A stretch of 64,000 nucleotides of DNA from Nanobdellota archaeon (GTDB lineage Archaea > EX4484-52 > LFW-46), in contig JAHILE010000040.1 in the NCBI GenBank assembly GCA_018897155.1, forward strand, positions 20,157 to 84,156, read 5' to 3'. Positions 24,951-46,799 of the stretch are shown piece by piece. Below the pieces are notes generated by a model, which searched no databases, was not told where the DNA came from, and saw nothing but the letters and a program-made list of their open reading frames with translations. A program made the position numbers and the translations under genes. Each line of letters starts with the position of its first letter. The stretch's first letter is position 1.

Positions 24951-25077
24951 AATACCTTAATACACTCCATATATAACTATTTTCAAGTTTTTAATGCAGT
25001 GCCTAAAAACTATCACACACCATTAGTGCTTTAAATAGCTTTAAAAATGTATTAGTCAATAAATATGAGAGATACTT

Positions 25078-25269
25078 ATGGGAAGAATCAAGCAAAAATT
25101 CATAAAAAACAGGGCCTTTGAGCTTGTCTGCGAACACGAGAAATTCACCACGGATTTCAAAAAGAACAAGGAAATCCTGCCTGAATTCGCGGATGTAAAG
25201 AACAAAAAAACAAAGAACAAGCTCGTGGGTTACATAACTAGGCTTGAAAAACAGAAAAAAAGGTATTGA
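25078..25269 (+). CDS. rps17e: ribosomal protein S17e
   Basis: 'MGRIKQKFIKNRAFELV...NKLVGYITRL' matches the conserved eS17 N-terminus. Confidence 0.7.
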   Translation: MGRIKQKFIKNRAFELVCEHEKFTTDFKKNKEILPEFADVKNKKTKNKLVGYITRLEKQKKRY

Positions 25270-25320
25270 TTCTTGTCAGTGGCATAAGCGCCATACCGCA
25301 CAGATTAAAGTATTTAACTT

Positions 25321-25986
25321 TTGAAGGGTAAAATAATCTGTGAATTGATGATACCTGAAGAATCCAAAAATCTGGTTCTTGACGAAAGCGCAAAAACAGT
25401 AAAAATCACGCTGAATCCGCGGCTTTATCCGCAGACTGTTGTGATGCGCGCAGCCTACCGTTTCACCGATGATTTCGACGTTATTGTTGACGGAGATCCT
25501 CTGTCAAGCATATTCGTAACGCTAAAGGTCAAGGCAGAAGATGTGGAAAGCACAACGCGTAAAGATTTGGAACAGCTTGAAAATGCTTTTTTCTCCGAGC
25601 TCATCCATGCAAATGTCGAAGAGACTCAGTCGCGCAGGTATGCTGATACAAGAAACGCGCTGATAGGGGCTGCGCTGAGGAACTTAATGGTCCAGGCAAC
25701 ACCGGAAAAGATTGAGAATATCGGAAAAAAACAAAAAACAACTGACGAAGAAAGTGCTTTTGATAAAATTTACAAATACATGCCAAAACAGAATTGTGGA
25801 AAATGCGGCGCAGATTGTGAAAAAACCGCAAAAAAAATACTTACAGGTGCTGCGAATCCAAATACATGTTTTCATCTGAAAAGGGCAGAATTTTCTGTGG
25901 TGCGAGAAGGGCTTGAAAATGCGCTTATTGCGCTAAAAAACAATAATGATTGCTATGAGCTTAATAAGAAAGACGAAAAATGCTGA
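25321..25986 (+). CDS. hypothetical protein with C-terminal CGxCGx3C...C Fe-S-like cysteine cluster; first gene of rSAM cluster
   Basis: The C-terminal 'NCGKCGADCEKT...NTCFH' cysteine cluster. Its 3' end overlaps the first rSAM gene by ~40 nt. Confidence 0.4.
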   Translation: MKGKIICELMIPEESKNLVLDESAKTVKITLNPRLYPQTVVMRAAYRFTDDFDVIVDGDPLSSIFVTLKVKAEDVESTTRKDLEQLENAFFSELIHANVEETQSRRYADTRNALIGAALRNLMVQATPEKIENIGKKQKTTDEESAFDKIYKYMPKQNCGKCGADCEKTAKKILTGAANPNTCFHLKRAEFSVVREGLENALIALKNNNDCYELNKKDEKC

Positions 25987-26911
25987 TTCCATTCTGGCAA
26001 ATGGTGCCTGTCAAACCGCAGAGCATGGCAAAACAGATTATATTCTTATAGGCATCAACAGAATTTGCGATAATGACTGCCTATTCTGCACAGATAACGA
26101 AAGCCATCCGGAATTAAACACAGATGCTAATGGCGTTATCAAAAGAATCGATTCACTAAATATTAAAAAATACCGCACAATAATACTCTCTGGCGGAGAG
26201 CCTGCAGAACAAGAAGGAATATCGGGAATAATATCACACTTAACTAGAGAGGGTCATACGGTTCAGATAATCACAAACGCAAGAAAATTTTCAGATAATA
26301 TATTTTCAAAAAATGTTGCGGATTCTGGCCTGAAAACCGCAATTACTGAAATACATTCTTCGATTCCCGAGGTACATGACTACATCACGCAAAGGCCCGG
26401 AAGCTTCAACGAAACCGTACTCGGAATAAGAAATCTAATTAATCTGAATGTAAACGTGCAAATAAAAATCATACTGAACCGCATAAATTACAAGACTTTG
26501 CCGCAGATTATAAAATATATTTGCAGGACATTCCCGGAATCAAAAATCAATATCACAACAACAAACATTAGTGGAAACGCACTAAAAAATAAGGAATTAC
26601 TCGCGGTCCGATTCTCTGAGGCTGCTGAGTACATAGAAAAAGGAATAAATGTTGCAAACCGATTTAATGCGCGAGTTTCTATCTCATGTTTGCCGCTTTG
26701 CGTGCTTCGTCCGCAGTATCGCACGTACATATTATCGAATGTACAATACCAGTATCTTGATGTTGGAAGCGATAAGATGCACACGCCAAAAAGGCACTTT
26801 GCACCATCATGCGAACGCTGTATTGATTCATGCAGATGCATGGGATTTTGGCGCAGCTACCTGGACTTATTCGGAGAAAGCGAAATACCCCCCATATTTG
26901 CGAAAGATTAG
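25946..26911 (+). CDS. radical SAM enzyme (paired paralog A)
   Basis: 'CDNDCLFC' is a CxxxCxxC motif. It also carries 'LSGGEP' and 'GNALKNKELLAVRFSE', plus a C-terminal 'SCERCIDSCRC' auxiliary Cys cluster. Confidence 0.7.
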   Translation: MIAMSLIRKTKNADSILANGACQTAEHGKTDYILIGINRICDNDCLFCTDNESHPELNTDANGVIKRIDSLNIKKYRTIILSGGEPAEQEGISGIISHLTREGHTVQIITNARKFSDNIFSKNVADSGLKTAITEIHSSIPEVHDYITQRPGSFNETVLGIRNLINLNVNVQIKIILNRINYKTLPQIIKYICRTFPESKINITTTNISGNALKNKELLAVRFSEAAEYIEKGINVANRFNARVSISCLPLCVLRPQYRTYILSNVQYQYLDVGSDKMHTPKRHFAPSCERCIDSCRCMGFWRSYLDLFGESEIPPIFAKD

Positions 26912-26989
26912 CAAACGCGTTTTTATAATTTGGCTGACAATTTAGTATATGCCCAGTAGATGCGTTAGCGTATGTAATAAGGTGCTTCA

Positions 26990-27340
26990 ATGAGTTTAAA
27001 GGAAAAACTGGAAAGAATAAAAAACCAGAACATAAAAAAAGCGTTTGAACTCCCGGAAAATGAAAAAACCGGAGTTGTAAACGGGCTCCTGATTCTTGGC
27101 GCGGCCATCGGAGCGCTAATAAGCCAGCAGCAAACCGCACATAGCACTCCGACGCCGACAAGCTGCGCAGATACATTAAACGACAAAGTAACGGAAACAG
27201 AAATACCTGCAAATAATCTGGATTTGGGTTTTGTTGAAAACTCCTGGCAGGACCACTGTTGGTGGGATCATTGCTGGTGGGATCATTGGGACCATTGGGA
27301 TCATTGGGATTTTACATTGTTTGCAAATGGTGGTAATTAG
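26990..27340 (+). CDS. repeat-containing small protein: hydrophobic N-region plus C-terminal WQ(DHCWW)2(DHW)3DF tract; candidate rSAM substrate peptide
   Basis: The C-terminus reads 'SWQDHCWWDHCWWDHWDHWDHWDFTLFANGGN'. It is encoded by 15-bp and 9-bp DNA tandem repeats and lies between the two paralogous rSAM genes. Confidence 0.5.
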   Translation: MSLKEKLERIKNQNIKKAFELPENEKTGVVNGLLILGAAIGALISQQQTAHSTPTPTSCADTLNDKVTETEIPANNLDLGFVENSWQDHCWWDHCWWDHWDHWDHWDFTLFANGGN

Positions 27341-27351
27341 GTGACGCACGT

Positions 27352-28248
27352 ATGACGAATAGATTATACTGTGCATTTAGCTACGAGTGCAACAACAATT
27401 GCCTGCATTGCGCAGCTGATTCGGAAAAACAAAGAAATCTTTCACTGTCTATTGAAGATATTGAACGGCTGCTTAAAAAAATAGACGAAATGAAAGACGT
27501 TGAAGTGGAACTTTCCGGAGGCGAGCCGACGCTAAAGCCAGAATTATATTATTTCCTTGCGCGCCTGACTGAAAGCCATCCGGAAATAAAGCACGTACTG
27601 CTTACAAACGGGCGCACATTTTCAAATCCCAACAACGCCGCAAAACTGAGTGAATATAATCCATACAGCATTTTTGTGCCGCTTCATGCTGACACGCGAG
27701 AACTTCACGACAAAATTTCCGGCGCAAAAAACAGTTTTGATGAAACAATGCTCGGCTTAAAAAATATGTATGAGTATCGCCTTCCGGTAAATATAAAAAC
27801 AGTTGTCAATAAGCTGAATTATCAGCGCATGCCGAATCTCGTTGAAATGGTTGCGCAGACACTTCCAGAATGCAAATGGATTACGCTGAATGGCCTAGAA
27901 CTTTCCGGAAGGGCGCTAAAAAACAAAGATATGCTTGGAATAAGAATAAGCGACACCAAAACACATATAGAGAAAGCCATAGACATGGCAAATAAATACG
28001 GACTTAGAATCGCCACTTACTCCATCCCGCCTTGCATCTTAAGCAAAGATTATTGGAAATATGTCGGAAGAAAGCGGCGCAACGTCATAATTACAAAAAC
28101 GCCGACAACAGACATGAAACGCGTTGAATTAACGTACGGAACCGTGCCTGAGTGCAAAGAATGCCGCTTTTTTAACGGCTGTACGGGTGCGTGGTATAGT
28201 TACTTTGAGGTTTATGGAAAAGACGAACTGAAACCGGTGATAAAATGA
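27352..28248 (+). CDS. radical SAM enzyme (paired paralog B)
   Basis: 'CNNNCLHC' is a CxxxCxxC motif. 'LSGGEP' and 'GRALKNKDMLGIRISD' match ORF 25946, and there is a C-terminal 'ECKECRFFNGC' cluster. Confidence 0.7.
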   Translation: MTNRLYCAFSYECNNNCLHCAADSEKQRNLSLSIEDIERLLKKIDEMKDVEVELSGGEPTLKPELYYFLARLTESHPEIKHVLLTNGRTFSNPNNAAKLSEYNPYSIFVPLHADTRELHDKISGAKNSFDETMLGLKNMYEYRLPVNIKTVVNKLNYQRMPNLVEMVAQTLPECKWITLNGLELSGRALKNKDMLGIRISDTKTHIEKAIDMANKYGLRIATYSIPPCILSKDYWKYVGRKRRNVIITKTPTTDMKRVELTYGTVPECKECRFFNGCTGAWYSYFEVYGKDELKPVIK

Positions 28249-29645
28249 CTGAAAATAAATCCGATGCTATGTGCAGCACGGTTTGTGCGCCAAACGAATA
28301 TTTTACAAAAAAACTATCAACTGGAAAGTATCTTGTGACTACGCGGCACAGACAGTATGCATTTCTTGACGCCAAGGAATATGACTTGCTTTATAGAGAA
28401 CAATTTCAAGAAAATAAAGAGCTTTTTGAAAAACTGGAAAAAACAGGCATCATATTCACTGAAAAAAACATTAAAAAAATAGTGGGCTCGTTTGAGAAAC
28501 AATACATATTTCTTTTCTTTCCAAAATCGTTCCGAATTAATTTGTCAAATGAGTGCAATCTCATGTGCAGTTACTGCCTGTCAAATGCGACCCCCACCCA
28601 GCACGAAACAATGTCAGACGAATTAGTGGATGCAACAATCAAATTCATGCTTTCTGCGCCCGGAAAAAAGTTTTATATGGAATTTCAGGGAGGCGAACCG
28701 CTTGTAAAATTCAATGAAATAAAAAAATTCGTAGCGAAAATAAAACTTGCTGCTGAGGTGGGAAAAAAAGAAATAGAAAAAATAGTTATTGTAACAAATA
28801 TGACTCTCATGACTGAAGAAATAGCAGAATATCTGCTCGAAAACAACATAGGGTTATGCTCTTCCCTTGATGGGCCTGAAGAGCTTCACGATATCCATCG
28901 CAAGTTTGGCGGCGGCGGCGGAACTTACAAAACAGTTACAAAATGGCTTTCGTACTTTCGGGAGCGAGGTAAGACAATAAATACGCTGCCCACAATAACT
29001 GCACACAGCATAAAATTTGGCGCGCGAAAAATAATTGACGAATATCTCAAACAGGGATGCATTCGAATCCCCATTAGGGCAGTAATTCCGGTTGGGCGGG
29101 CAAAACAAAATGACAACCACACATATTCTGCAGAAGAGTTCATTGCGTTTTGGAAAGATGCTGTCGAATACCTGGTGGAAATAACGCTGAATGGCAACCC
29201 CGTATTTGACCCTAACACGCAAGCAATGCTAAGAAACATAATGGATGGCCCGGTATCCTATATGTGCATGCGAAAACCATGCGGAGGTGCAATATCGCAC
29301 ATGTCGATATCCTGTGACGGAACAATCATGCCTTGCGACCTTTCAAAAACACTGCCTGAAATGGCTATCGGAAACGTGCGCGAAAGCCATATTGATGTTG
29401 CTCTAAGGACAATTAACATGAATGCGCGAACTTCTGATTTCCAACCGCTCTGCAACACCTGCGCGTTCGGGCCGTACTGCGGAAACTGCTACACCAGAAC
29501 GCGTGCCGTTTTTTCCGATGAAACCCCGAGAACTCCGCGCGACTTTGAATGTAAAGTAAACAAGGCAATGTTTACATATCTTTTTGAAAAAATGCAGGAC
29601 GCAAAATACGTAAAAGTTTTCCGCATTTGGATAAATGGCAGGTGA
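28245..29645 (+). CDS. radical SAM enzyme with C-terminal SPASM/twitch-like Cys-rich domain (peptide-modifying type)
   Basis: 'CNLMCSYC' and 'FQGGEP' motifs. The C-terminal tract 'CMRKPCGGAIS...CDGTIMPC...CNTCAFGPYCGNC' is SPASM-like. Confidence 0.75.
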   Translation: MTENKSDAMCSTVCAPNEYFTKKLSTGKYLVTTRHRQYAFLDAKEYDLLYREQFQENKELFEKLEKTGIIFTEKNIKKIVGSFEKQYIFLFFPKSFRINLSNECNLMCSYCLSNATPTQHETMSDELVDATIKFMLSAPGKKFYMEFQGGEPLVKFNEIKKFVAKIKLAAEVGKKEIEKIVIVTNMTLMTEEIAEYLLENNIGLCSSLDGPEELHDIHRKFGGGGGTYKTVTKWLSYFRERGKTINTLPTITAHSIKFGARKIIDEYLKQGCIRIPIRAVIPVGRAKQNDNHTYSAEEFIAFWKDAVEYLVEITLNGNPVFDPNTQAMLRNIMDGPVSYMCMRKPCGGAISHMSISCDGTIMPCDLSKTLPEMAIGNVRESHIDVALRTINMNARTSDFQPLCNTCAFGPYCGNCYTRTRAVFSDETPRTPRDFECKVNKAMFTYLFEKMQDAKYVKVFRIWINGR

Positions 29646-29649
29646 TTAA

Positions 29650-30498
29650 TTGTATTCGCTCATATTAAAGGCAGCAATAGTTGCAGCAATCTTGAAAGCG
29701 ACAAACGCGTTTAAATGGCGCGCAGTTATTGTATATTTCTTGCTGTCAGTTTTTATGATATACTTCTCCGGCGCACAATATGCTCCGGAAAGAATCCTAG
29801 TATACACATTTGAATTTTTTGCAGCATATGTCGCAATCGGCATCATTAAGTACCGCATAAATCGCGCAAAAACAAAAACCCCCGTATACGGAGGAGTTAC
29901 TCTTTCGCTGAATTCGCTTCTGTTAATGTTTTCAATGGGCTACATGTTTGCGCTTAGTGAAATAAATAAATATGCTTCGTTTTTTGTTACAATGCTTCTT
30001 TTTTTTATTCTCAATAAAAACGCTTACCGAAAAAAAATGATTTTGTTTTGGAAGGCCGTATTTATGTTGTCAATAATTCATTCGCTAATAATTTCCGGCG
30101 GCAGAACGCTAATAACCCCGACGTATTTTGTTGCGACATACGCGGTAATAACACATCTTTTTTTCGCTGCAAAAGATGCGTTCAGTTATGCACATTCGCC
30201 TGAAGAATTAACCGAGGGTATGATGCCGGCAGAAAGTATTGTTCAAGACAATAAAAAATATATTTTCGGAAGCACGCTGTTCCCGAGTGCGTTTGGGCTT
30301 ATTAGATATGTCGCAGGCGACATTCTGCTGAAAAGACGTGTTGTGGCTTCATTTTTTGTTCCGCTAACAAAGAAAAACATTCTTGAGATAAGAAAAATCG
30401 CAAAGGAACATAAACGTCCTTTTTTTCTTGTGCAAAAAGAAATAGACTTTTTGCCATTCATTGTTTTGGGCGCAATTGTTGCACTTTTAACAATGTAG
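29650..30498 (+). CDS. polytopic membrane protein (unknown; candidate exporter/processing component of the rSAM cluster)
   Basis: Six to eight hydrophobic segments. It lies immediately downstream of the rSAM/SPASM gene on the same strand. Confidence 0.4.
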   Translation: MYSLILKAAIVAAILKATNAFKWRAVIVYFLLSVFMIYFSGAQYAPERILVYTFEFFAAYVAIGIIKYRINRAKTKTPVYGGVTLSLNSLLLMFSMGYMFALSEINKYASFFVTMLLFFILNKNAYRKKMILFWKAVFMLSIIHSLIISGGRTLITPTYFVATYAVITHLFFAAKDAFSYAHSPEELTEGMMPAESIVQDNKKYIFGSTLFPSAFGLIRYVAGDILLKRRVVASFFVPLTKKNILEIRKIAKEHKRPFFLVQKEIDFLPFIVLGAIVALLTM

Positions 30499-30526
30499 CT
30501 TTTTATCGCGTTGCCAAAAATCGATT

Positions 30527-32620
30527 CTATGCAGCAATACAACACACCTTACTTAAAAGAGGCATATCAACACAGCCATCACTACATGCCTCCATACCCG
30601 GTGGACAGCCGCCCATAAACTCAAATACAAGGTCACATGTTGGTGGTGGTGGCAATCCTACTTTGCAGCAGATTTTAGTTATTTCCTGGCAATCTGAAAT
30701 AGTTATTTTAGGAACTTCATTTTCTCCTTCCAGACACGCACCCAAAAAATAGCACGTTCCGCCGTTATCGGCGCACGTTAATCCAGCTGGTGCGTCTTTG
30801 CAGCAAAGTTCACCTGCATCACAAGTTCCTGAAGCGACGATCTTGCCAACAGGACATCCCGCTCCTGCTTCACATGTCTGGCCTGCTGTATTTTCACATG
30901 TGTATAATAGCGGCGAGGGCACTTCAATTGGAGGTACTGTTTGAGGCCCAAAAGCACCGCCGCTTTGCGTAGAACAAACATGGCCGAAATCATCGCATGC
31001 ATTGTCATCCACTATATCTATTTCGACAAAAAAGGTAAACTGGTACGGCACCCATTTCTTTTCAACGCTGTCAAAAACATTATATTTTTCATCGATAATC
31101 GTCACATTTATTGGAACGTTTTTTAAAACATATCTACTGTCATAATGCATGTAACAAGTATTTGAAGTATCACAACCGCCAGTACAACCAGATGTTGATG
31201 AGCATTTGCCCGTATTCACAGCCAATCCGCTTTTGTATCTATAATATTCCAAATTTTGGCCGCTGCACCATTCGTTTTCATCGGCGGATGGTTGAGAATT
31301 TATGGGGCATATTTGAAAATCTGGTGCAATGCTAAGTTTCAATTTTATATCCGCCCCCACATTATCAAACTGATTTGATATATCACCGGCGATAATATCC
31401 AAGCCGCTGTTAAGGACAATCCGAAAATCAACTGCAGTATATTGTGGCGTAGGGTCTGAAGGGCATCCGTTCGCATAACTCAATCTTCCAGAATTGCATC
31501 CAAGTGTGTTTGATGGTATTTGATGATCTACCAACGTATTAAGTTGATTATACCATCTCGGCTTCACCCACGCCTCATAATTATCAACAAAAAACTTCGC
31601 GACCCCGTACATTCTCCAGTACCTGATTTGAGCGTCTTCTTCTACAAGGTTCCAGTTTTTCAGATTGGCGTCTGCGCTCAAGGAGCTTATTTTGTCGGGC
31701 CCATAAGCACTTCCTCTCAAAAAGCCTTCGCCGTTATTGAGCGTCTCGTAAACGCCTTTCCCTGCCGGCACAAAAAAAGCATTTAACGGTTCTATCTCAA
31801 AGCGTTGTAATTTGAGTTTTTGTCGGTAGCTTTCTATACTTGCGTTAAGTGCTGCATTAAGATTATTCACAACATCTTTGTCATATATTGAAACCGCCAT
31901 AACACGAATATGCGCAACATCAACGGCAGAGCCAGTAAATATGAGTGTAATATCCTCAACAGAATTTTGCACAATGCTGTTTCCAATTGGAAGGATTGTC
32001 GTGCCTGAGGTTGTGATTGTTGTAACACCATTACAATTTGCATTCTGGCAAATCTGGACATCAACAGATTCTTCTTTCAGCATAATCACATTAAACATTA
32101 TGTTCAGCTGATAGTCTCCTCGCACAACATCCTTCATAGTCTCGACATACTCCGCGGCGGAAACTACTGTGTATGTCTTGGCATCTGTTCCAAGCTTAAA
32201 ATTGGCATCAATATAAGACAAATACGGCATTCGTTTTCGTATTGTGCTCTCGGAAGTTCCAACTGTCTTGCATCGGGAAACCGCAAAATTCAGAACGCCG
32301 TCGGTAATGTCCATTTTCGGCACAGGATCATTTCCAGGATCTCCATCAGTAGCTGCAGTAATTACTGCCGCGCTTACTCCGCCATGCACTCCAAGCTCCT
32401 TTGCAGTATTCATGAGCCCAAAAAAAAGCGCGGTTTTTTCAAACGACTGCTTTATTCCGTGAAGCGCAAGATTAGCATCAGATATTGCGTCAGCACTTCT
32501 TGAAGATGTGCCCTGCGCAGCAGAAAATCTAAAAAGATCATATAATAAGGCACTGCCCAAAGCAATAACTAAAAAGAAGACCCCGAACAAAACAAAATGC
32601 CTTGACAATGCTTTTTTCAT
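30527..32620 (-). CDS. large secreted/anchored protein with Cys-rich C-terminal repeats
   Basis: An N-terminal signal anchor is followed by a C-terminal ~200 aa with more than 30 Cys in repeated '...C....CC...' units. Confidence 0.5.
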   Translation of the reverse strand: MKKALSRHFVLFGVFFLVIALGSALLYDLFRFSAAQGTSSRSADAISDANLALHGIKQSFEKTALFFGLMNTAKELGVHGGVSAAVITAATDGDPGNDPVPKMDITDGVLNFAVSRCKTVGTSESTIRKRMPYLSYIDANFKLGTDAKTYTVVSAAEYVETMKDVVRGDYQLNIMFNVIMLKEESVDVQICQNANCNGVTTITTSGTTILPIGNSIVQNSVEDITLIFTGSAVDVAHIRVMAVSIYDKDVVNNLNAALNASIESYRQKLKLQRFEIEPLNAFFVPAGKGVYETLNNGEGFLRGSAYGPDKISSLSADANLKNWNLVEEDAQIRYWRMYGVAKFFVDNYEAWVKPRWYNQLNTLVDHQIPSNTLGCNSGRLSYANGCPSDPTPQYTAVDFRIVLNSGLDIIAGDISNQFDNVGADIKLKLSIAPDFQICPINSQPSADENEWCSGQNLEYYRYKSGLAVNTGKCSSTSGCTGGCDTSNTCYMHYDSRYVLKNVPINVTIIDEKYNVFDSVEKKWVPYQFTFFVEIDIVDDNACDDFGHVCSTQSGGAFGPQTVPPIEVPSPLLYTCENTAGQTCEAGAGCPVGKIVASGTCDAGELCCKDAPAGLTCADNGGTCYFLGACLEGENEVPKITISDCQEITKICCKVGLPPPPTCDLVFEFMGGCPPGMEACSDGCVDMPLLSKVCCIAA

Positions 32621-32624
32621 AAAA

Positions 32625-33143
32625 TCATCCCCTTGTTTTCAATACCACTTTGGCAACGTCGCCGTTTGGAAGAGCGATGTACTCAAAGGACAAAACATTG
32701 AAACCGGTAGGGCCCATACTGGGCATTCCATAACATCCCGAAACCCCGAGAAGTGGTGGGCAGAGTACGGAATGTTCTACATAAAAATCATATGTTGTAA
32801 TAGATAGTTCCATTAACCACCCAAAACAATCCACAGGTTTCACAGAGTCTGTTTTCCCTCCGTACTCTATTTGAACCACGTCGCCTAAAAAGCTGTTTGT
32901 TTTCCCTTCGCCAATACCTATTGCTAACACATCCCTTAAAGGCAGTTTTGTATTCGGTGCGCAATCCGTGCTTTCAAGTATGCTGTGAAGCGCATATTGT
33001 GTAGTTTTGCTCTTATCATCATATAATAGTGACGTTACTTTCAGATAAGCCACAATTGCTATTATCACTATGAATATCAGCATTATAACCAAAAGCCATG
33101 GCGCAAGAGGCTCAGTCTGTCCGCACCTTTTTTTGTTATTCAT
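32625..33143 (-). CDS. membrane-anchored extracellular protein (class III-like N-terminus)
   Basis: The likely start is 'MNNKKRCGQTEPLAPWLLVIMLIFIVIIAIV'. The ORF-track N-extension overlaps the upstream gene. Confidence 0.35.
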   Translation of the reverse strand: MNNKKRCGQTEPLAPWLLVIMLIFIVIIAIVAYLKVTSLLYDDKSKTTQYALHSILESTDCAPNTKLPLRDVLAIGIGEGKTNSFLGDVVQIEYGGKTDSVKPVDCFGWLMELSITTYDFYVEHSVLCPPLLGVSGCYGMPSMGPTGFNVLSFEYIALPNGDVAKVVLKTRG

Positions 33144-33156
33144 ATAATCATCTAAC

Positions 33157-33864
33157 TTAGCTACAGGCATCATCAAACCCCACTGTTTGAAGCGATTTAT
33201 CACATATTTTTGAACAAAAACATTTTGTATAAGGGCATTGAATGTCGCAAAGGCATAGCGGATATCCATCTGCGTAAAAATCAGTTCCTGAATCCGCGTC
33301 CAATATTACTTTTATTGATGCAAGAGCCATTTTATCATCGCTATTTACGACGCCGGAAAATCTTAAAAAATTTCCATCACTGCCGTAATTATAAGGGGAT
33401 GGCATAAGCGTTTCGAACCCGAGCGGCCCTCCAACAGTCGAATATAAAAAAAAACCGCGATCCGAAATGCAACGTTTAGTTATTCCGCGAGCATGCGTAT
33501 TATATGCATAATCAATATTGTTGTTGTTCTGAAAATACCACGTATCGGTCCCGCTTTTGACTTCAATATAATACAGAGAGCCGGGCAGGTCCAGCGGTTC
33601 CGATGTTCCGGCGCAAACAATGCTATTGTTGTACTTGTCGAGAGCAGTCTTGTTAAATACAAATTTTTCTGTTGATCCTTTTACGTCATTCAAATTTATG
33701 CACGGAGCTGACAAAAGCTTTTCTGAAAGCGCTATTGAAGATCCGCGAGTTTCTATATCTCCTATAACCGTCTTTGCCCATACAAATATTACAATAAGCG
33801 CAACTGCGCAAGCAGTGCCTATGATGACGTAAATTGCAGACATTAAATTATCAACAAATTCCAT
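33157..33864 (-). CDS. membrane-anchored extracellular protein
   Basis: It has an N-terminal TM 'AIYVIIGTACAVALIVIFVWA' and a Cys-containing C-terminus. Confidence 0.4.
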   Translation of the reverse strand: MEFVDNLMSAIYVIIGTACAVALIVIFVWAKTVIGDIETRGSSIALSEKLLSAPCINLNDVKGSTEKFVFNKTALDKYNNSIVCAGTSEPLDLPGSLYYIEVKSGTDTWYFQNNNNIDYAYNTHARGITKRCISDRGFFLYSTVGGPLGFETLMPSPYNYGSDGNFLRFSGVVNSDDKMALASIKVILDADSGTDFYADGYPLCLCDIQCPYTKCFCSKICDKSLQTVGFDDACS

Positions 33865-33873
33865 TATATCCCT

Positions 33874-34341
33874 CTAGCAAAAAGATTCTTGAAATACTGC
33901 ATTGCAGCAGGCAGTACCTTGGACACAAACTTCGACAAACGGCCGGCATGAATCAGCCGGATCTTTTTTCTTAATAACGCAAAATGCACGGGCTTCAATT
34001 GGCGTAATTATCTGCTTTAGCTCCGCTGTGTAGTGGCTCATTTTAAGCTTCGGCGTTAATGCTTCAATAGTGATGGCATCGCCGGAGTACTGAACTTGTA
34101 TTGAATCTTCATCAATTTCCACAGTATAATTTTCATCATTCGGCAGTTTATATATCGCAATGCCGTTTTCAGCCACAGATATTTGGACGATGGTGTTTCT
34201 TAGCCCCATTATGGCAAGCTCTGTTTCGCCCCGCTTGTCTGCAAAAACATTGGCTGTTGTGGAAAGGGCAAATACCAATATGACAACCACTATAAGAAGC
34301 GCTCCGATACCGTTTATAACATTTCCAACAATGCCTTTCAA
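33874..34341 (-). CDS. type IV pilin-like protein (class III signal peptide)
   Basis: N-terminus 'MKG|IVGNVINGIGALLIVVVILVFAL'; C-terminus 'CVQGTACCNAVFQESFC'. Confidence 0.45.
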   Translation of the reverse strand: MKGIVGNVINGIGALLIVVVILVFALSTTANVFADKRGETELAIMGLRNTIVQISVAENGIAIYKLPNDENYTVEIDEDSIQVQYSGDAITIEALTPKLKMSHYTAELKQIITPIEARAFCVIKKKDPADSCRPFVEVCVQGTACCNAVFQESFC

Positions 34342-34345
34342 AAAA

Positions 34346-34555
34346 TCACCAAAAGCTCAAAAGACCGGCGCATGCAGACCAGTCCCATCTCAGGCAATCC
34401 AAAATTTTTGCCGTTCTTTCAGCAACAGGAATTGCCGGACCCATTGCTGCGCTGATAAAGTAAAAAACAATCACTAAAAGTATTATAAATATAAGCAGCT
34501 GCCGGATACCGTCTATAGAAAATACAAACGCGCCCTTCCGCCTTGAAAAAATCAT
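34346..34555 (-). CDS. small pilin-like protein
   Basis: 'RRKG|AFVFSIDGIRQLLIFIILLVIVF', with a Cys/Trp-containing tail. Confidence 0.4.
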   Translation of the reverse strand: MIFSRRKGAFVFSIDGIRQLLIFIILLVIVFYFISAAMGPAIPVAERTAKILDCLRWDWSACAGLLSFW

Positions 34556-34593
34556 ACTATTATATTATATCAAAGGCTATTAATATAAGTTCT

Positions 34594-34815
34594 CTATAGC
34601 AGCCAGCAGAGCGGCAGGCACTTGACAAGGCCATTCTCAGGAATACATTTGCCGCAGTCTGAAAGAGACTTGAACATGCCTGTTGATTTTGTCAAAAAGC
34701 CGGAATTCGTATTTACAAAAAACAAAATTACTAAAACCGCCATAATCAGGCCCAGAATTATGATTATGGTTGTTGAATTCACCTCTACCTGGCCTTTAGG
34801 TGATTTTGAGTTCAT
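34594..34815 (-). CDS. small pilin-like protein
   Basis: 'SPKG|QVEVNSTTIIIILGLIMAVLVILFF'; tail 'CGKCIPENGLVKCLPLC'. Confidence 0.45.
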   Translation of the reverse strand: MNSKSPKGQVEVNSTTIIIILGLIMAVLVILFFVNTNSGFLTKSTGMFKSLSDCGKCIPENGLVKCLPLCWLL

Positions 34816-34833
34816 AGAAGTCCTCGATTGCGT

Positions 34834-36795
34834 TCAGGCTTTTGGCTGACATACCGCTAAGACATTATTCCAGATACATGCAGAACATTTCGGGCAATTT
34901 GTCTTGGTATTGTATGTCGGAGTTCCGCACAGATCGCCGCATTTGCTTACACAGGTTTCTAAAACCCATTTACATAGGCTTGAACAAACATCACAATATG
35001 TCTGGCTAGTGCCCGCATATTCCGCACAATTATATCCGCAGGAAAAGAACGCCACGCTCTTTGACCATGTAACCGGAGTTGCCAAATTATCTGCGCTTGC
35101 AGATGTTGCTAATGTGGCGCTGACCGATGTTTCAAGCAGAGGCACTGTCGGCGAATCCTCTTTAAGGAGAACAAATGAGTAATTCCTTGACGCACTTACC
35201 GGAATATTTATATTATCGCCGCCCAAAAGAGCCAAATCCTTTGCCCCTAACTTTGCGCTAATATGATCGCTAACTTTTATCGCTGCCATGGTACCCGTAT
35301 TTTTTACAGTGACGTTAACAATGCGATCACTGACGAGGTCTTCATAAATTCTTGAAACACCGATTTTTTTGTCTTGAATATATACATTCGTTATCTCAAG
35401 CTTTGGCGCTTTGCAGCTTCCATCTGCGCATCCTGTTAAGCAGGAATCATCTGCCTTAGTAGTATATTTACAGCCCGTCACAGTATCAGAATATCCAGAA
35501 TCGCTCGGGCCTGAAAGGACATAATCACCGTCACATCCACCAGTTTGCGATGAACACGACCAGGTAAAATCTTTTTCAATATAATTTATTATGTATGGCT
35601 TCGTATCAAATGTTTTTATGCAAAGAACGTTTTTGCCATCCCCTTGGCGCTCAACACGCAGCGTATTTTTTCCATCATTAAAGCCGCCAACTCCGACCTT
35701 AGGCAGATCAAACAGAATTTCTTTAGGATTTGCGGGATTAATTTTCTTCCCTGCAATAACTTCCACAGTATTCAGCTTAACCACAACATGCGCGGGATTC
35801 CAAATATCGCTTTCAAATATCGCGCCCATTTGCTTTCCAGGCCCAAACGGCAGATCTGCGTCAAAAGTGACTGCCGGGCAAGTCCATGAAAAACTAACAT
35901 CACGATCTGCTGTTTCAATTCCGCGTTTTACGTGAATTTTCAAAGTATACCCGCCATTATACAAAGCTGCCACAGGCACTCTAAAACTATAAGACGCCAT
36001 ATTTTCGATGCAAGCAACAAGAGGACCTAGATTGCATTTTTGTTCAACCCCTCCTTTCCGTAATATAACTGTTAGACCGTCCACGGGGTTTTCAAGTGGT
36101 CCCATACCCACTTTAATTTTAACATATACTTGTTCTCCTGCTTTTACTGAAGATATTTTAATGTCACAATTCACATCTGAACAAAGAATAACGCGATTTA
36201 CGCCCGTTTCTTCTTCCGCTTCTTCTTCATCTTCCTGAATTGGTTTCGCGCCTTTGTCAACCAACATCGTAATCGGCTTTGACGGGTAATTATCTGCGCT
36301 GACAGTTAGCGTCACATACCCCTGCTGAATGTTTGTGGTGCTTATTGTACCTTGATAAACTCCAGGAGTTGTGGTTTCATCGAACGCGTCCGTTATGTAT
36401 GGCCCTGTTATTGTTCCGCCGGTAATCGGAGCGCCATTATATGTCAGTGCGATGTTTATTATATTCTCCCCCTCGCCTAGTTTCTCCGGATAAGTTGCTT
36501 CAATTGTCTTTGCCAGATGATCTAAAAATTCCCTGCAGGTCTGATCATTCATCTGCGGGTCTTTTACCGTCAAACATGCGGCGCCTGTCGGATTATCATT
36601 GCACACTTTTGTGCAATAATCTATTTTTGAAGAATTGCTTCCAAGTGAGGGATCTGTGCCTTTTATTATTTCTTCCGTTCCTGTTGCTCGCCCGTTTAGG
36701 ATAATATAAATAATTGCAGAAATTGCCAAGAGCACGATTATGTAAATCACCATATTCATTGAAACTTCAAACGTGCCTTTGCGTTTCATAAACAC
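34834..36795 (-). CDS. large pilin-like/adhesin-like protein (class III signal peptide, Cys-rich C-terminus)
   Basis: 'KRKG|TFEVSMNMVIYIIVLLAISAII' followed by a 600-aa extracellular region. The last 70 aa carry ~14 Cys. Confidence 0.5.
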   Translation of the reverse strand: MFMKRKGTFEVSMNMVIYIIVLLAISAIIYIILNGRATGTEEIIKGTDPSLGSNSSKIDYCTKVCNDNPTGAACLTVKDPQMNDQTCREFLDHLAKTIEATYPEKLGEGENIINIALTYNGAPITGGTITGPYITDAFDETTTPGVYQGTISTTNIQQGYVTLTVSADNYPSKPITMLVDKGAKPIQEDEEEAEEETGVNRVILCSDVNCDIKISSVKAGEQVYVKIKVGMGPLENPVDGLTVILRKGGVEQKCNLGPLVACIENMASYSFRVPVAALYNGGYTLKIHVKRGIETADRDVSFSWTCPAVTFDADLPFGPGKQMGAIFESDIWNPAHVVVKLNTVEVIAGKKINPANPKEILFDLPKVGVGGFNDGKNTLRVERQGDGKNVLCIKTFDTKPYIINYIEKDFTWSCSSQTGGCDGDYVLSGPSDSGYSDTVTGCKYTTKADDSCLTGCADGSCKAPKLEITNVYIQDKKIGVSRIYEDLVSDRIVNVTVKNTGTMAAIKVSDHISAKLGAKDLALLGGDNINIPVSASRNYSFVLLKEDSPTVPLLETSVSATLATSASADNLATPVTWSKSVAFFSCGYNCAEYAGTSQTYCDVCSSLCKWVLETCVSKCGDLCGTPTYNTKTNCPKCSACIWNNVLAVCQPKA

Positions 36796-36799
36796 ACCA

Positions 36800-37072
36800 T
36801 CAACATACCGTCATAATCCCTTTAGTTACGCAGTCGCCTCCAAAATCGTCCCAAACACAGCCGTCTCCATAAATCTGCTTGCAAGTGTTGCATCTTTCCT
36901 GGCATATCTGGGCTTGAATCACATTGTTCGCATTATCTGAAGTGGCTTGATTTCTTTCATCTGCCTTATTTGTAGAACTGCTGAAAACCAGAAGGATTAC
37001 CACGGCAACTGCCAGCGCAATCACTATTGCAATAATAATCCACATAGCCTGGCTTGTTCCTTTTTTAAACAT
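36800..37072 (-). CDS. small pilin-like Cys-rich protein
   Basis: 'KKG|TSQAMWIIIAIVIALAVAVVIL'; tail 'CQERCNTCKQIYGDGCVWDDFGGDCVTKGIMTVC'. Confidence 0.45.
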   Translation of the reverse strand: MFKKGTSQAMWIIIAIVIALAVAVVILLVFSSSTNKADERNQATSDNANNVIQAQICQERCNTCKQIYGDGCVWDDFGGDCVTKGIMTVC

Positions 37073-37073
37073 G

Positions 37074-37262
37074 TCATACCCCCGGAATATGGATGGTTTT
37101 CAAAACCATTATAATTGACCTGTCGCGCATAAAAAATAACATATACACCAACACAAGAAGCACAATCAAAGCAAGAACCCATTTTATAATGGTTTCTATA
37201 GGCATGCTGAAACCCTTTTTCATAATTAATTTATGTGCGAGCTTATTTAAATAAGCATTCAC
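37074..37262 (-). CDS. small pilin-like protein
   Basis: 'KKG|FSMPIETIIKWVLALIVLLVLVYML'. Confidence 0.4.
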   Translation of the reverse strand: MNAYLNKLAHKLIMKKGFSMPIETIIKWVLALIVLLVLVYMLFFMRDRSIIMVLKTIHIPGV

Positions 37263-41412: not shown

Positions 41413-43593
41413 TTATAGTTTTAAGAATTTCCAGTCCGATAAGTTATTCTCATCATAATTGTATCTTTCATTATCGTTATATCTACAACTCTCATCTTTA
41501 AAGATAATAATCCCGCCAAATAGCTTTTTATTATGCTTTTGATTTTGTGTTTTAATGTATTTGCTTAGTGCTTCTGCTTTTTCTTTAGCGACTTTTGCGG
41601 TTATTCCACTTTTAGTATCAAAAATACCTATTCTTCCATCATCAAGCATAATTACAAAATCAACATAAAATCCTCTTTCCACACCTGCATCGTCTTTATA
41701 TTTTACTGCAAGGTATTTTTTATCTGATTCTCCGTTTTTGAACCACCATTTAACAGAATTTTTTGGATTTTCAAGTAGTTTTATGAAATCTTTTTCTGGC
41801 ACACTTTCGGCAGAAATAAAATAAGGTTTCATAATTGCTTTTTTATGTGGCAATTCTTTGTATTTGCTGTTATAAGTTATTAGTTTGGGAACATTCCAGA
41901 CAAGATGCTCTGTTTCTCTTTGTTCTGGCAATCCTCCAACAATCTTGAGTTTGTATTCCTCTTTTGCTTCATTAATGCAATCAGTAAATAACTGATTATT
42001 TTCTTCTCCTAAAATTATCTTTTGAGCAAAAGTTTCATCTTCGATTTTTATTACTTTTTCAAAAAACTTATAGAGTGCTGTTCTTATTCTTCCTTGTGAA
42101 TCAGCAGGAGCAAAAGGAGTACAGCTTCCTCTTACAAATAAGTCAAATCTATGTTGTAATTCAACAGCACTTAACTTAAATTGCATTTCTCCTTTATGTT
42201 CTACTGTTTGAACTTTATCTAAAACCAATATTTTTCCATCAACCATTATTTTAGTTACGAGAGATTTTGGCTTTAGATTTATTTTCTTTGCAAGTTCGCT
42301 TTTTTGTGCAATTTCTAAGAATAATTTTGTAAATTCTCCAGAAAGTCTTGTCTTTTCTCTTTGTCTTATGAGATAGATTGAATTAAGATCAATATTGCTA
42401 TATAATTCTTCTCTTCTTTTTGCTTCGTAAATTGTGATATAATCTTTAGCGACTTCTTCAGTTATGTTAATGTCAGCAAGATTTGTGAATACATAACCTT
42501 TATTCAATTCTTCAGTTTCATAATGCTTAAACTCTGGCATTCTCATTATTCTGCCTACTGTCTGAATGGTAAAGTCCATACTTTGCATATCTCTGAACAT
42601 TACCAGAATGTATGCTCTTGGACAATCCCAACCTAATGCTATAGCTTGTTTGAAAATAAGAACTTGAACATCGTTATCAGGCATTTCAATATTCTCAAGG
42701 TTGGTTTTTTCTTCTGATAAATAAATCCCTAATTTTCCGTTTTCTGTTGTTATTTTGAATTTATCTCTTAAAATTCCCGTAATCTGTTCTTGCCTGTCAA
42801 TAACTCCTGTCTTTTTATCAGGAAGCTGAATTAAAATTAATGGATTGATATCGGATTTTTCTTTTTCTAATAGTTTAAGCATTTCCTGTCTTTTCTTTAA
42901 AGCACATTCAATAACTAATTCATCAGGAGATTTGTCAGAAACTTTTCCTTTGTCTAATTCTGGATTTATGGCAATTTCTTTCTTTATCATTCCCTCTTTT
43001 CTTACATCTTCAAATTCTACAAGAACATTATAAAAAGAATGAATGTGCGGAGTAGCTGAAACTTCCAAAATTACATCGGGATCAATATCATTTATTAAAT
43101 TTCTTGAAGTTTCTGTTTTAGCAGTAAAGTGACTTTCGTCTATAATTAAAACTATTTTTGTGCCGTCTTCTTTCGTGTTTTCAATAATTTTAGATAAATT
43201 TCTTTCCTGTTCATTTTCTCTAATATAAACATTATCTGTTTTGTTTATGCTTTCCCAATTCAAGAACAAAATTTCATCTGGCTCAATTTTATTACCTACT
43301 AAATCTTCAAAAAATTTACACTCTATCGCTCTTGTCGTAGAATAATATTTATCTAATTTTTCTTTACTTTGTGTATGTAATTGTCTTGGAGCTGTCCAAA
43401 TAAAAGCGATTTGCTTTCCATCGTCTCTTCTATCAACAAGTCTTTTAATAAATTCGGCCACCATTAAAGTTTTACCAGAGCCTGTCGGAGATTTAAAAAC
43501 TAAAGTTTCTCTTGAATCTCGATTTAGTAATTCGTTAATCTGTTCTTTTAGTTTTAAAATTGCTTTCTCTTGATAATCTTTAATTTCAATCAT
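41413..43593 (-). CDS. Type III restriction enzyme Res subunit (SF2 helicase + PD-(D/E)xK nuclease)
   Basis: Walker A 'SPTGSGKT', DEAH-like 'LIIDESH' and a C-terminal 'VDFVIMLDDGRIGIFDTK' nuclease motif. Confidence 0.75.
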   Translation of the reverse strand: MIEIKDYQEKAILKLKEQINELLNRDSRETLVFKSPTGSGKTLMVAEFIKRLVDRRDDGKQIAFIWTAPRQLHTQSKEKLDKYYSTTRAIECKFFEDLVGNKIEPDEILFLNWESINKTDNVYIRENEQERNLSKIIENTKEDGTKIVLIIDESHFTAKTETSRNLINDIDPDVILEVSATPHIHSFYNVLVEFEDVRKEGMIKKEIAINPELDKGKVSDKSPDELVIECALKKRQEMLKLLEKEKSDINPLILIQLPDKKTGVIDRQEQITGILRDKFKITTENGKLGIYLSEEKTNLENIEMPDNDVQVLIFKQAIALGWDCPRAYILVMFRDMQSMDFTIQTVGRIMRMPEFKHYETEELNKGYVFTNLADINITEEVAKDYITIYEAKRREELYSNIDLNSIYLIRQREKTRLSGEFTKLFLEIAQKSELAKKINLKPKSLVTKIMVDGKILVLDKVQTVEHKGEMQFKLSAVELQHRFDLFVRGSCTPFAPADSQGRIRTALYKFFEKVIKIEDETFAQKIILGEENNQLFTDCINEAKEEYKLKIVGGLPEQRETEHLVWNVPKLITYNSKYKELPHKKAIMKPYFISAESVPEKDFIKLLENPKNSVKWWFKNGESDKKYLAVKYKDDAGVERGFYVDFVIMLDDGRIGIFDTKSGITAKVAKEKAEALSKYIKTQNQKHNKKLFGGIIIFKDESCRYNDNERYNYDENNLSDWKFLKL

Positions 43594-45337: not shown

Positions 45338-45391
45338 TTATTTGTTCCCCTTTATTCTCAATATAACCTATGATGTTTATTAATGTTTTTC

Positions 45392-46030
45392 TTATTTAAC
45401 CATTGTGTTGCATTCTTCTAATCTTTCACAAAGCAAACTGGCAAAACTCAGATATTTTAATGCCCTGTTTTTATCTTTTTGGATAATATTCTCATGTCCC
45501 TTTGGGTTTCTTATACCCATTATTGCACCTGCATAAAGATGCATAAATCCTTCTTGTTCATCTTTATCTGATTGGGATACAAGTCCATTCATTTTTAGTA
45601 GAGGGCTATTTACACTAAAAGCAGTTAGCATAAGACTTTTACCATCCAAGTCTTTGCGACAAGATTTCTCTTTAACAAGATTATTTATTTTCTTAAAAGC
45701 CTCAAAAATTGCTTGAGCATAATGTTTATCATAAAATAATTTTTTACTGACGGATTCTATTTCAGGATGGATATTTAATAATCTAAAATATTCCACTTCT
45801 GTTTTTTTCCCTTCATAGAAATCCGCATTATTTTTTTGAATCCAACCTTTATCCTCTAAACGTAAGAATTTTTTACAGGATTTAAGTTGCATTAAAATAT
45901 TTGAGCAGGTTATTTGATATTCGTCAAAAAGTTTGTTTTTTACGTCGCTTGGCCTTCTATGTTCTAGAAAGTATCCATTTTTCCATAATTCGCTTATTGC
46001 AGTATTTATTTTCATGTTAATCAGATACAT
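45392..46030 (-). CDS. hypothetical protein in RM island
   Basis: A 212-aa ORF with no catalytic motif recognised. It lies on the same strand immediately upstream of mod. Confidence 0.35.
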   Translation of the reverse strand: MYLINMKINTAISELWKNGYFLEHRRPSDVKNKLFDEYQITCSNILMQLKSCKKFLRLEDKGWIQKNNADFYEGKKTEVEYFRLLNIHPEIESVSKKLFYDKHYAQAIFEAFKKINNLVKEKSCRKDLDGKSLMLTAFSVNSPLLKMNGLVSQSDKDEQEGFMHLYAGAIMGIRNPKGHENIIQKDKNRALKYLSFASLLCERLEECNTMVK

Positions 46031-46741: not shown

Positions 46742-46799
46742 TTTTAATCGCCCTTAATAACATAATAGTGTAATAATGCAATAGTATTTAAATCTTTCG

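Follow-up and report, generated by a model that had tools for sequence, protein, structure and literature searches.

An Hxs-like radical-SAM cassette and its putative tryptophan-rich precursor peptide in DPANN archaea

Background

The His-Xaa-Ser (Hxs) peptide maturation systems reportedly go back to Haft & Basu in 2011 and to families TIGR03976-03979. The bacterial HxsABCD version is an anti-phage system (Li et al., Nat Commun 2026, PMC13128918). HxsB and HxsC, its enzymes of the radical S-adenosylmethionine (rSAM) type, together with HxsD, to which HxsC binds, mature HxsA, a protein with a signal peptide, five HxS repeats and a peptidoglycan-binding domain (PMC13128918). A modification of +8 Da has been mapped to the SHRSS motif of HxsA, the N-terminal cleavage of the protein is non-canonical, and the periplasmic product blocks entry of phage DNA (PMC13128918). 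The genes are ordered D-B-C-A in 99.6% of systems, 99.7% of the systems occur in Pseudomonadota, and archaea go unmentioned in that study (PMC13128918). Here we describe a six-gene cassette with Hxs-like enzymes at positions 25321-30498 (plus strand) of a 64,000-nucleotide stretch of DNA from a Nanobdellota archaeon (GenBank assembly GCA_018897155.1, contig JAHILE010000040.1), referred to below as the window.

Triceptides are a second group of relevance. They are peptides made on ribosomes and modified after translation (RiPPs) with three-residue cyclophanes, made by rSAM/SPASM enzymes that form cyclophanes of three residues (3-CyFEs) such as XyeB, GrrM/OscB, YhhB, HaaB and HtkB (PMC11499958).

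Public proteins identical to those of the cassette are labelled just 'radical SAM protein' or 'hypothetical protein' [Nanoarchaeota archaeon]. An earlier note, made from the letters of the window alone, had read the genes as an archaeal variant of the paired-rSAM Hxs architecture, built on an Asp-His-Trp repeat peptide. The analysis given here leads us to regard the cassette, with a probability of roughly two in three, as a divergent Hxs-type radical-SAM maturation cassette of a DPANN clade (DPANN being the group named after Diapherotrites, Parvarchaeota, Aenigmarchaeota, Nanoarchaeota and Nanohaloarchaeota), whose product would be an exported, modified Trp-rich peptide acting at the cell surface. 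The enzyme chassis is that of Hxs; what is new is the substrate class, the gene order, an archaeal-specific component derived from A24 prepilin peptidases and a conserved partner operon of surface proteins.

Results

Six tightly packed open reading frames (ORFs), O1 to O6, make up the cassette, and all were found on the plus strand where the earlier note had placed them. Successive genes are separated, in order, by a 41-nt overlap, a 78-nt gap, an 11-nt gap, a 4-nt overlap and a 4-nt gap. Three of the ORFs carry rSAM motifs on the same strand, as had been claimed; they are not strictly consecutive, because the peptide gene sits between the first and the second, as the earlier note also states. 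Scans with Rfam and for tRNA gave no match in the cassette region.

Family assignments were judged against the NCBI curated cut-offs of 370 bits for HxsB (TIGR03978), 267.9 bits for HxsC (TIGR03977) and 50 bits for HxsD (TIGR03976). The best family for O5 (28245-29645) is HxsB, at 279.7 bits over positions 6-466 of the 466-position model, followed among NCBIfam models by PapB (145 bits), QhpD (120 bits) and SCIFF (103 bits). O5 contains the radical-SAM motif CNLMCSYC (C104, C108, C111) and a SPASM domain at aa 346-406. It is above the Pfam cut-offs for PF04055 (62.4 bits) and for SPASM PF13186 (27.5 bits, cut-off 21.5), which bears out the SPASM-like tract noted earlier in this enzyme. The CxxxCxxC and SPASM cysteines are invariant across 23 members of its clade, and the nearest solved structures are anSME 4k37 and 5wgg. 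The HxsB-like enzymes form a discrete archaeal clade with 40-89% identity among themselves, compared to at most 36% to bona fide bacterial HxsB.

Both O4 (27352-28248) and O2 (25946-26911) have HxsC as their best family, at 174.9 bits (model positions 34-289 of 292) and 137 bits, respectively, and for neither does the next NCBIfam family exceed 86 bits. O4 carries CNNNCLHC, LSGGEP, GRALKNKDML and CKECRFFNGC, and O2 the corresponding CDNDCLFC, LSGGEP, GNALKNKELL and a C-terminal CERCIDSC. In O4 the CxxxCxxC site is made up of C13, C17 and C20 and the four-cysteine auxiliary site of C228, C268, C271 and C277; these seven cysteines are invariant in 12 of 12 full-length copies of the HxsC-like enzymes. 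The length of O2 is 318 aa in the NCBI version and 321 aa in the ORF list. The top NCBIfam match of the small protein O1 (25321-25986) is HxsD, at 39.4 bits (E = 5.8e-10) and likewise well ahead of the next family, and its orthologs have precomputed PF27806:HxsD matches. The bacterial HxsD motifs LYW and LLNDYxLRE are loosely kept in O1, as LYP and FFSELIHANVEE. The HxsD-like part of O1 (aa ~33-123, nt 25417-25689) is fused to a C-terminal putative [4Fe-4S] domain, Pfam FeS PF04060, at aa 155-183 (nt 25783-25869; 24.8 bits, cut-off 23), called the Fe-S domain below. The start of O1 is ambiguous: the mechanical ORF begins at TTG 25321 (221 aa) and the gene callers begin at 25348 (212 aa).

Because every one of these Hxs scores lies under its cut-off, and because the Trp-rich peptides described below do not match the HxsA models, O1, O2, O4 and O5 are classed from their sequences as Hxs-like and not as curated Hxs members. 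The cassette as a whole is likewise not a curated HxsABCD member as judged from sequence, four defining features being absent: an HxsB and an HxsC score above the cut-off, HxS repeats in the substrate and the gene order D-B-C-A.

The remaining small ORF, O3 (26990-27340), encodes a precursor peptide of 116 aa whose C-terminal repeat was confirmed. A basic leader (aa 1-28, nt 26990-27073), ending in EKTG, is followed by a hydrophobic stretch (aa 29-45, nt 27074-27124), a small-residue site resembling A-x-A, Cys59, a linker and then the Trp-rich core, WQDHCWWDHCWWDHWDHWDHWDF, at aa 86-108 (nt 27245-27313). The repeat is also a tandem repeat in the DNA, where 27260-27310 contains a 15-bp unit in 1.9 copies (100% match) and a 9-bp unit in 3.7 copies (91%). 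O3 matches no curated family in Pfam or NCBIfam. A word-indexed search of 5.8e9 clusters returned 5 relatives; an exhaustive search of 1.84e9 proteins with a hidden Markov model (HMM), of the kind that the earlier note had proposed, returned 13 representative clusters of the same layout, and inspection of loci added more. The nearest peptide, from locus L002, is 85% identical in a full-length alignment (95% over the aligned 70% in the search). Wherever gene context was examined the peptide genes adjoin the same enzymes, an association which, on that sequence context, is far beyond chance.

Peptides of this family are 92-116 aa long and begin with a basic segment, M-x-[IL]-K-[DE]-K-[IL]-x-K-I-K. 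Then comes the motif E-K-T-G-V-x-N-G, of which the glycine corresponding to G28 is the sole invariant column among 19 sequences. This glycine has Lys at -3 and Thr at -2 and is followed by the hydrophobic segment VVNGLLILGAAIGALIS (17 aa), downstream of which a candidate A-x-A signal peptidase I site would be an alternative point of cleavage. Beyond the helix are the small-residue A-x-A-like site, a conserved cysteine, a variable linker and a Trp-rich C-terminus, and the tail nearly always begins W-x-[DN]-H-C-W. Thereafter the tails differ in register. That of the window has period 5 plus period 3 (WWDHx, then WDH), others have period 2 (WSWGWGWCW...), and others again are of pure period 3 (WSD WTN WSD ... 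WGN WGN). The copy number of the Asp-His-Trp repeat varies even with respect to the closest relative. Since the tails run in periods of 2, 3 and 5 across the family, the Asp-His-Trp repeat is, on the sequences compared, a local elaboration and not the basis of the system, as had first been thought; the family signature is W-x-[DN]-H-C-W with a Trp-rich tail of any of the three periods.

These results bear on the possibility that the enzymes are housekeeping rSAM proteins, engaged in cofactor or tRNA modification, with a spurious small ORF between them. Weak secondary matches to MoaA, NirJ, AhbD and similar proteins would suit it, as would the location of the cassette among core genes such as those for fibrillarin, Nop56/58, rpS17e and PurD. 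However, Hxs families lead the matches by 90-135 bits. The small ORF recurs, with invariant motifs, in 13 or more clusters and always adjoins the enzymes, and the core genes on either side are not kept with the cassette. The earlier note had itself named housekeeping families and an unconserved peptide as the contrary outcome; the Hxs families were found to be the best, and the peptide gene syntenic in every relative examined. We consider this explanation extremely improbable, and effectively refuted.

The core order HxsD-peptide-HxsC-HxsB-O6 was found in L001, L002, L003/4, L009, L010, L013-L016 and L090-L092, and the core cassette recurs in about 15 DPANN lineages. Metagenome-assembled genomes in the clade are labelled mainly as DPANN (Nanoarchaeota, Aenigmatarchaeota and Nanohalarchaeota); the few Bathyarchaeota and Methanosarcinales labels within the HxsB clade may be binning errors. 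Upstream neighbours vary, being rpS17e/Nop56 in the window, TtuA/GGR in L090/L091 and RuBisCO/Trk in L092, and since they differ between lineages the cassette is a unit and not a frozen accident of synteny. In L090 (6468-7517) and L091 (6533-7591), a Peptidase_U32 gene on the opposite (minus) strand lies between the HxsD gene and the peptide and HxsC genes. The synteny of six genes suggested beforehand was therefore upheld for the core of five, O2 and the Fe-S domain being optional.

The paralogy of O2 and O4 claimed in the earlier note was substantiated (30% identity over 287 aa, E = 4e-48). O4-type HxsC is found in every related locus. The second, O2-type enzyme is present in three lineages: the window, L008 and, as a fusion, L016; it is missing from L002 and from most lineages. 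The copy in L008 lies upstream of the peptide gene and is 39% identical to O2, compared to 31% to O4. In L016, O4-type and O2-type enzymes are joined in one protein of 611 aa, and both halves have a CxxxCxxC motif and a C-terminal cluster of their own. In a neighbour-joining tree the O2-type copies (window, L008 and the C-terminal half of the L016 fusion) form a clade outside all O4-type copies. From these comparisons the second HxsC is taken to be an old, optional partner, and the fusion in L016 speaks for its physical cooperation with the core HxsC. In the gap between the HxsD and peptide genes of L015, no degenerate O2 was found by tblastn. A bacterial locus, L019, had appeared to have a peptide between two HxsC genes and was rejected, the intervening ORF being an unrelated 195-aa protein.

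The Fe-S domain on HxsD was observed in the window lineage only. None was found in 12 close loci searched by tblastn, and it is missing from L002 and most lineages. By blastn, the window aligns to L002 only over 24999-25753, 26990-27301 and 27351-31000, so that a 1.24-kb accessory block at 25754-26989 (plus strand), consisting of the Fe-S domain of O1 and the whole of O2, is missing from this closest relative. HxsD of L002 terminates ...KQKDCG*, and its window counterpart runs on as ...KQNCGKCGADC into the Fe-S domain. Because the L002 protein stops where that of the window enters the domain, the alignment suggests that the block was deleted in the L002 lineage. Identity to L002 is 77% upstream of the indel (24999-25753) and 90-92% downstream of it (26990-31000), a step which may be a sign that the HxsD end of the cassette was recombined or replaced.

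O6 (29650-30498) had been noted as a polytopic membrane protein. This holds, with about seven predicted N-terminal transmembrane helices and one at the C-terminus, and the protein can be further identified as a degenerate homolog of prepilin peptidases. The Arc_PepC domain PF06819 was matched by eight of eight O6 orthologs (best E = 2.7e-5); that of L091 has a precomputed, unmarked match, and the window O6 alone is below the threshold, at 15.8 bits (aa 174-255, nt 30169-30414). In 12 of the 12 clade loci where the position is visible, O6 lies directly after HxsB; L014 and L016 are among these, being recognised with the family HMM. The junction is usually an overlapping or 4-nt-spaced stop/start, with a 4-nt gap in the window and overlaps in L090-L092.

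The same O6-family HMM matches proteins of 355-380 aa encoded directly upstream of HxsD in 16 of 27 archaeal loci of the HxS-repeat type (L017, L018, L023-L027, L030, L035, L036, L038, L041, L045, L046, L056 and L063) and in none of 33 bacterial ones. These long proteins have Peptidase_A24 and Arc_PepC domains, show weak similarity to EppA/FlaK, and carry both catalytic motifs, Y-x-D-IK...I-x-N and W-[ST]-A-G-D-[AG]-K-L-F. In an alignment with 18 long relatives, O6 and 10 orthologs were found to be without the region that bears 'Y-x-D-IK' and 'AGDAKLF'. The N-terminal ~80 residues of the long relatives are missing from the O6 family, and there is no invariant Asp pair. Since the family begins after both catalytic Asp motifs, O6 is, judged by this alignment, a truncated and catalytically dead homolog of A24 prepilin peptidases. 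The sequence YVAGDILLK in the window O6 was considered as a GxGD motif and rejected, as it is not conserved in the orthologs. With the class III signal peptidases EppA, FlaK and PibD, O6 thus shares the Arc_PepC domain and the distal transmembrane bundle, but it differs from them in the absence of the N-terminal ~80 residues and both catalytic Asp motifs, in its translational coupling to an rSAM enzyme and in its location outside any filament locus. A search of the literature found no paper linking rSAM or Hxs systems with prepilin peptidases.

Convergent to the cassette is an operon of nine ORFs at 30527-37262 (minus strand). Most of the nine encode class III (prepilin-like) signals, beginning with [KR]-G and a hydrophobic helix, and many are Cys-rich towards the C-terminus; examples of the signals are MFKKG|TSQAMWIIIAIV, MKRKG|TFEVS and MKG|IVGNVINGIGALLIVV. 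The operon includes proteins of 697 aa and 653 aa with 20 or more cysteines, and no Pfam family was matched by its proteins. Homologs are adjacent and convergent to the cassette in L001, L011, L012, L014, L015 and L016, and operons of the same build stand beside it in L090-L092 despite unrelated upstream genes.

Discussion

Compared to the HXS loci of E. coli and Klebsiella, the present cassette has the same kinds of component. An rSAM/SPASM enzyme of the HxsB type, an rSAM enzyme of the HxsC type with a CxxCx5C cluster at the C-terminus, and a small HxsD are encoded next to a substrate that bears repeats and has an N-terminus of the export type. Histidine recurs at period 3 in the window tail (H-W-D three times, compared to H-x-S); H-C-W occurs twice there and H-x-S not at all. 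The differences are considerable. The order is D-(C')-A-C-B-O6 in the window and D-A-C-B-O6 in the clade, where bacteria have D-B-C-A. The earlier note had likened the cassette to Hxs systems through its paired rSAM enzymes; the family matches, from a test which that note had itself proposed, support the likeness, but the pair here is of two HxsC-type enzymes, whereas bacteria pair HxsB with HxsC (PMC13128918). The substrate is an acidic, Trp-rich peptide of 92-116 aa with a C-terminal repeat, without HxS repeats or a peptidoglycan-binding domain. There is an additional dead A24 homolog, with a second HxsC and an Fe-S domain as options, the hosts are archaea (DPANN), the cassette is outside any defence island, and the equivalog cut-offs are missed by all of the enzymes.

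More distant relatives show that canonical HxS-repeat cassettes of the HxsA3/HxsA4 type are common in DPANN archaea. Loci with an HxsB ~30-35% identical to O5 were found in Woese-, Iain-, Micr-, Aenigmat- and Nanoarchaeota, and in bacteria of the candidate phyla radiation (CPR), Elusimicrobia and Omnitrophota. They encode short ORFs with genuine HxS repeats (...HSSHSSHGSHGS...), directly downstream of HxsB in the archaea, which match NCBIfam HxsA3/HxsA4 (NF038309, NF038313). One Woesearchaeota HxsB (L029) scores 455.6 bits on TIGR03978, over the cut-off. Most of the distant DPANN/CPR loci (L017-L089) have a second short HxsD-like protein of 65-90 aa (...EFCNYVLGLMKN), HxsD_rel NF038315, between HxsD and HxsB, and often no adjacent HxsC. 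The statement that no equivalent of the window system was known is thus to be qualified, although the Trp-type substrate class is new. Several of the CPR loci are rich in HxsC-like enzymes: in Saccharibacteria L075 (8392-15395) HxsB is followed by seven tandem HxsC-like rSAM paralogs, and L048, L050, L058 and L078 have 3-5 such paralogs a few kb downstream.

The HxsA3/HxsA4 cassettes resemble that of the window in having HxsD and HxsB adjacent and in the build of the precursor (80-190 aa), with a basic N-terminus, an acidic motif ending in Gly, a hydrophobic helix, A-x-A, a linker and a C-terminal repeat. In archaea they resemble it also in that an A24-family membrane protein belongs to the cassette (the 16 of 27 loci given above). 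They differ in their true HxS repeats, in HxsD_rel, in the position of the precursor downstream of HxsB, in the usual lack of an adjacent HxsC and, in archaea, in an A24 protein that is full-length, upstream of HxsD and intact in both catalytic Asp motifs. As a full-length A24 gene adjoins HxsD in those 16 loci, the gene context suggests a prepilin-like processing of the HxsA-type precursors of archaea. The invariant Gly before the hydrophobic helix of the Trp-type peptides correspondingly resembles the -1 Gly of prepilin and class III signals, although imperfectly (Thr at -2, Lys at -3).

Triceptides are alike in the aromatic-X-X repeats (W-D-H, W-S-D, W-G-N) of the window and of period-3 members such as L016, and in their use of an rSAM/SPASM maturase. 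O5, however, is distant from the 3-CyFEs (YhhB 66.2 bits against a cut-off of 445, GrrM/OscB 62.7 against 310), the solved ChlB structure matches it at just 32 bits, and triceptide pathways are without HxsC, HxsD or A24 components. The tail of the window contains the motif W-x-[DNH] 7 times and that of L016 contains it 13 times, but four members with period-2 WxWx tails have it just once or twice, and the WxWxWx tails of several members fall outside it. 'Triceptide' was rejected as a uniform definition of the family, given that some of its tails have period 2 or period 5.

As regards the maturation of an exported repeat peptide by rSAM enzymes, the cassette most probably works like HxsABCD, and a mechanism can be proposed by analogy. 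As in E. coli HXS, HxsD would dock the precursor onto HxsC, which here is perhaps an HxsC/HxsC' (O2/O4) heteromer to which the fused Fe-S domain would supply electrons. HxsC and HxsB would then covalently modify the Trp/His/Cys core (W-x-[DN]-H-C-W) in the cytoplasm, the likeliest chemistry being side-chain crosslinks, either aromatic-to-C-beta cyclophanes or Cys thioethers. Cyclophanes suit the period-3 members and not those of period 2, and Cys thioethers are equally possible. The leader may be cut at the invariant Gly, in the style of a prepilin peptidase, or at A-x-A by signal peptidase I, and the modified peptide would be exported. Its site of action would be the cell surface, probably in company with the pilin-like proteins encoded nearby, and O6 may serve as a non-catalytic membrane receptor or escort. 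Candidate roles are envelope defence, interaction with a host or surface in company with the pilin-like proteins, and release as a bioactive peptide.

Several observations weigh against an Hxs-type cassette for an exported surface peptide. No Hxs score reaches its NCBI curated cut-off (279.7 against 370, 174.9 and 137 against 267.9, and 39.4 against 50 bits), and the HxsA, A2, A3 and A4 models gave no match at E <= 10 among the 19 Trp-type peptides. The tail is acidic and aromatic, compared to the basic HxS repeats proposed to bind DNA. Homology of the leaders of the Trp-type and HxS-type precursors is suggestive at best from the alignments: hhalign gave a probability of 78% over 44 columns between the Trp-type and DPANN HxS leaders, and HMM-to-sequence scores were no better than those of shuffled controls. 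With regard to processing, Thr is found at -2 of the leader instead of the Lys/Arg usual in class III signals, and the A-x-A-like site past the hydrophobic stretch suits ordinary signal peptidase I equally well. Lacking the catalytic residues, O6 cannot itself be the leader peptidase, and no active A24 peptidase, filament ATPase or platform protein was found among the window ORFs scanned. An AlphaFold2 model of O6, built from three sequences, had a confidence (pLDDT) of 45, was too poor for a fold search and was set aside except for topology. Finally, the linkage of the pilin-like operon could in part stem from shared ancestry.

The homology of HxsB, HxsC and HxsD also invites the explanation that this is an archaeal antiviral system like bacterial HXS, in which a matured peptide sited in the envelope would block entry of viral DNA. 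The bacterial system is experimentally anti-phage, with an exported, rSAM-matured effector (PMC13128918), and the precursor here has an N-terminus of the export type. The chemistry of the effector is the opposite, however: an acidic and aromatic Trp-Asp-His tail takes the place of basic HxS repeats said to bind DNA electrostatically, and there is neither a peptidoglycan-binding domain nor peptidoglycan. The cassette lies in a core region and has a GC content of 0.41, normal for the genome, the acquired island with a type III restriction-modification system and IS200 (GC ~0.30) being apart from it at 41.4-47.4 kb. PADLOC defence models returned only generic, uninformative viperin-like rSAM matches for the cassette. 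It also appears to be kept vertically with the pilin-like operon, and is not sporadic. A simple copy of the DNA-trapping defence of bacteria is disfavoured by the nature of the tail, by a GC content that is normal and by the location in the core genome, and an antiviral function of that kind is considered unlikely.

Another explanation is a conventional secreted RiPP, such as an 'archaeocin' with antimicrobial action, a Trp peptide active on membranes, or a metallophore. Sec would export the precursor, signal peptidase I would cut it at A-x-A and the product would be released, with the pilin-like operon and O6 as bystanders. Tails rich in Trp and in His/Cys/Asp are characteristic of peptides that act on membranes or bind metals, and a small leader-bearing precursor with an rSAM/SPASM maturase fits such a pathway. 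So does the finding that the next-best families of O5 are peptide crosslinkers, and most members have A-x-A-like sites after the hydrophobic region and then the conserved Cys. Yet O6, translationally coupled to HxsB and present in 12 of 12 loci, is no bystander, and a dedicated transporter, an immunity gene and a C39-type protease are all missing. Invariance in the peptide is confined to the Gly ahead of the hydrophobic helix and does not extend to the A-x-A site. The position of the pilin-like operon is held across 40-60% HxsB identity, and that of the upstream genes is not. Simple secretion and release of this kind is therefore also improbable.

Returning to the Hxs-type maturation of a surface-acting peptide, one specific form of it would tie the O6 and operon findings together. 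The product would be a crosslinked, prepilin-like Trp peptide, cleaved at the Gly and passed by the dead A24 homolog to a type IV filament-like apparatus at the surface, formed by the Cys-rich pilins of the adjacent operon, where it might be a modified minor pilin, a tip subunit or a membrane-inserting element with which DPANN episymbionts would contact the membranes of their hosts or breach them. This is put forward as a speculative suggestion, and we would not expect it to be correct in full.

The surroundings of the cassette are those of a core chromosomal region of an archaeon, with fibrillarin, Nop56/58, rpS17e, PurD, a PolD with an intein, PolB, Cdc6 and CDC48. The intein is in the large subunit (DP2) of DNA polymerase D (window 1375-6249, minus strand) and has a LAGLIDADG homing-endonuclease domain (aa ~915-1374). 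A 537-aa protein at 10239-11852 (plus strand) has an N-terminal Lamin Tail Domain (PF00932, 53 bits), which is uncommon in archaea. The region at 41413-47447 (minus strand, GC ~0.30) encodes a ResIII type III restriction enzyme, an N6/N4 DNA methylase, Hypoth_Ymh, two unknown small proteins and an IS200-like transposase, and adjoins Cdc6/Orc1 (47923-49143). It is distinct from the cassette and is probably a defence island of horizontal origin.

Conclusions

For 15 years, until shown to be anti-phage in 2026, Hxs systems remained a curiosity known in silico, and their +8 Da chemistry and processing pathway are still unexplained. The recruitment of HxsB-, HxsC- and HxsD-type enzymes to a completely different substrate class gives enzymologists a second, chemically contrasting substrate. 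It also places Hxs-type systems firmly in Archaea, among the genome-reduced DPANN, where every retained cluster is likely to matter. The tie between Hxs and A24 prepilin peptidases is specific to archaea, the peptidase being active in the HxS-type cassettes and degenerate here, and suggests a testable route for the unexplained 'non-canonical' N-terminal processing. The partnership with a pilin-like, Cys-rich operon points to the DPANN cell surface, a poorly understood interface with hosts and viruses. Should the peptide prove to be an element of a filament, it would be the first link of RiPP-type rSAM chemistry to type IV filament biogenesis, and would imply that Hxs systems are, in general, modifiers of envelope structures, of which anti-phage defence is one use.

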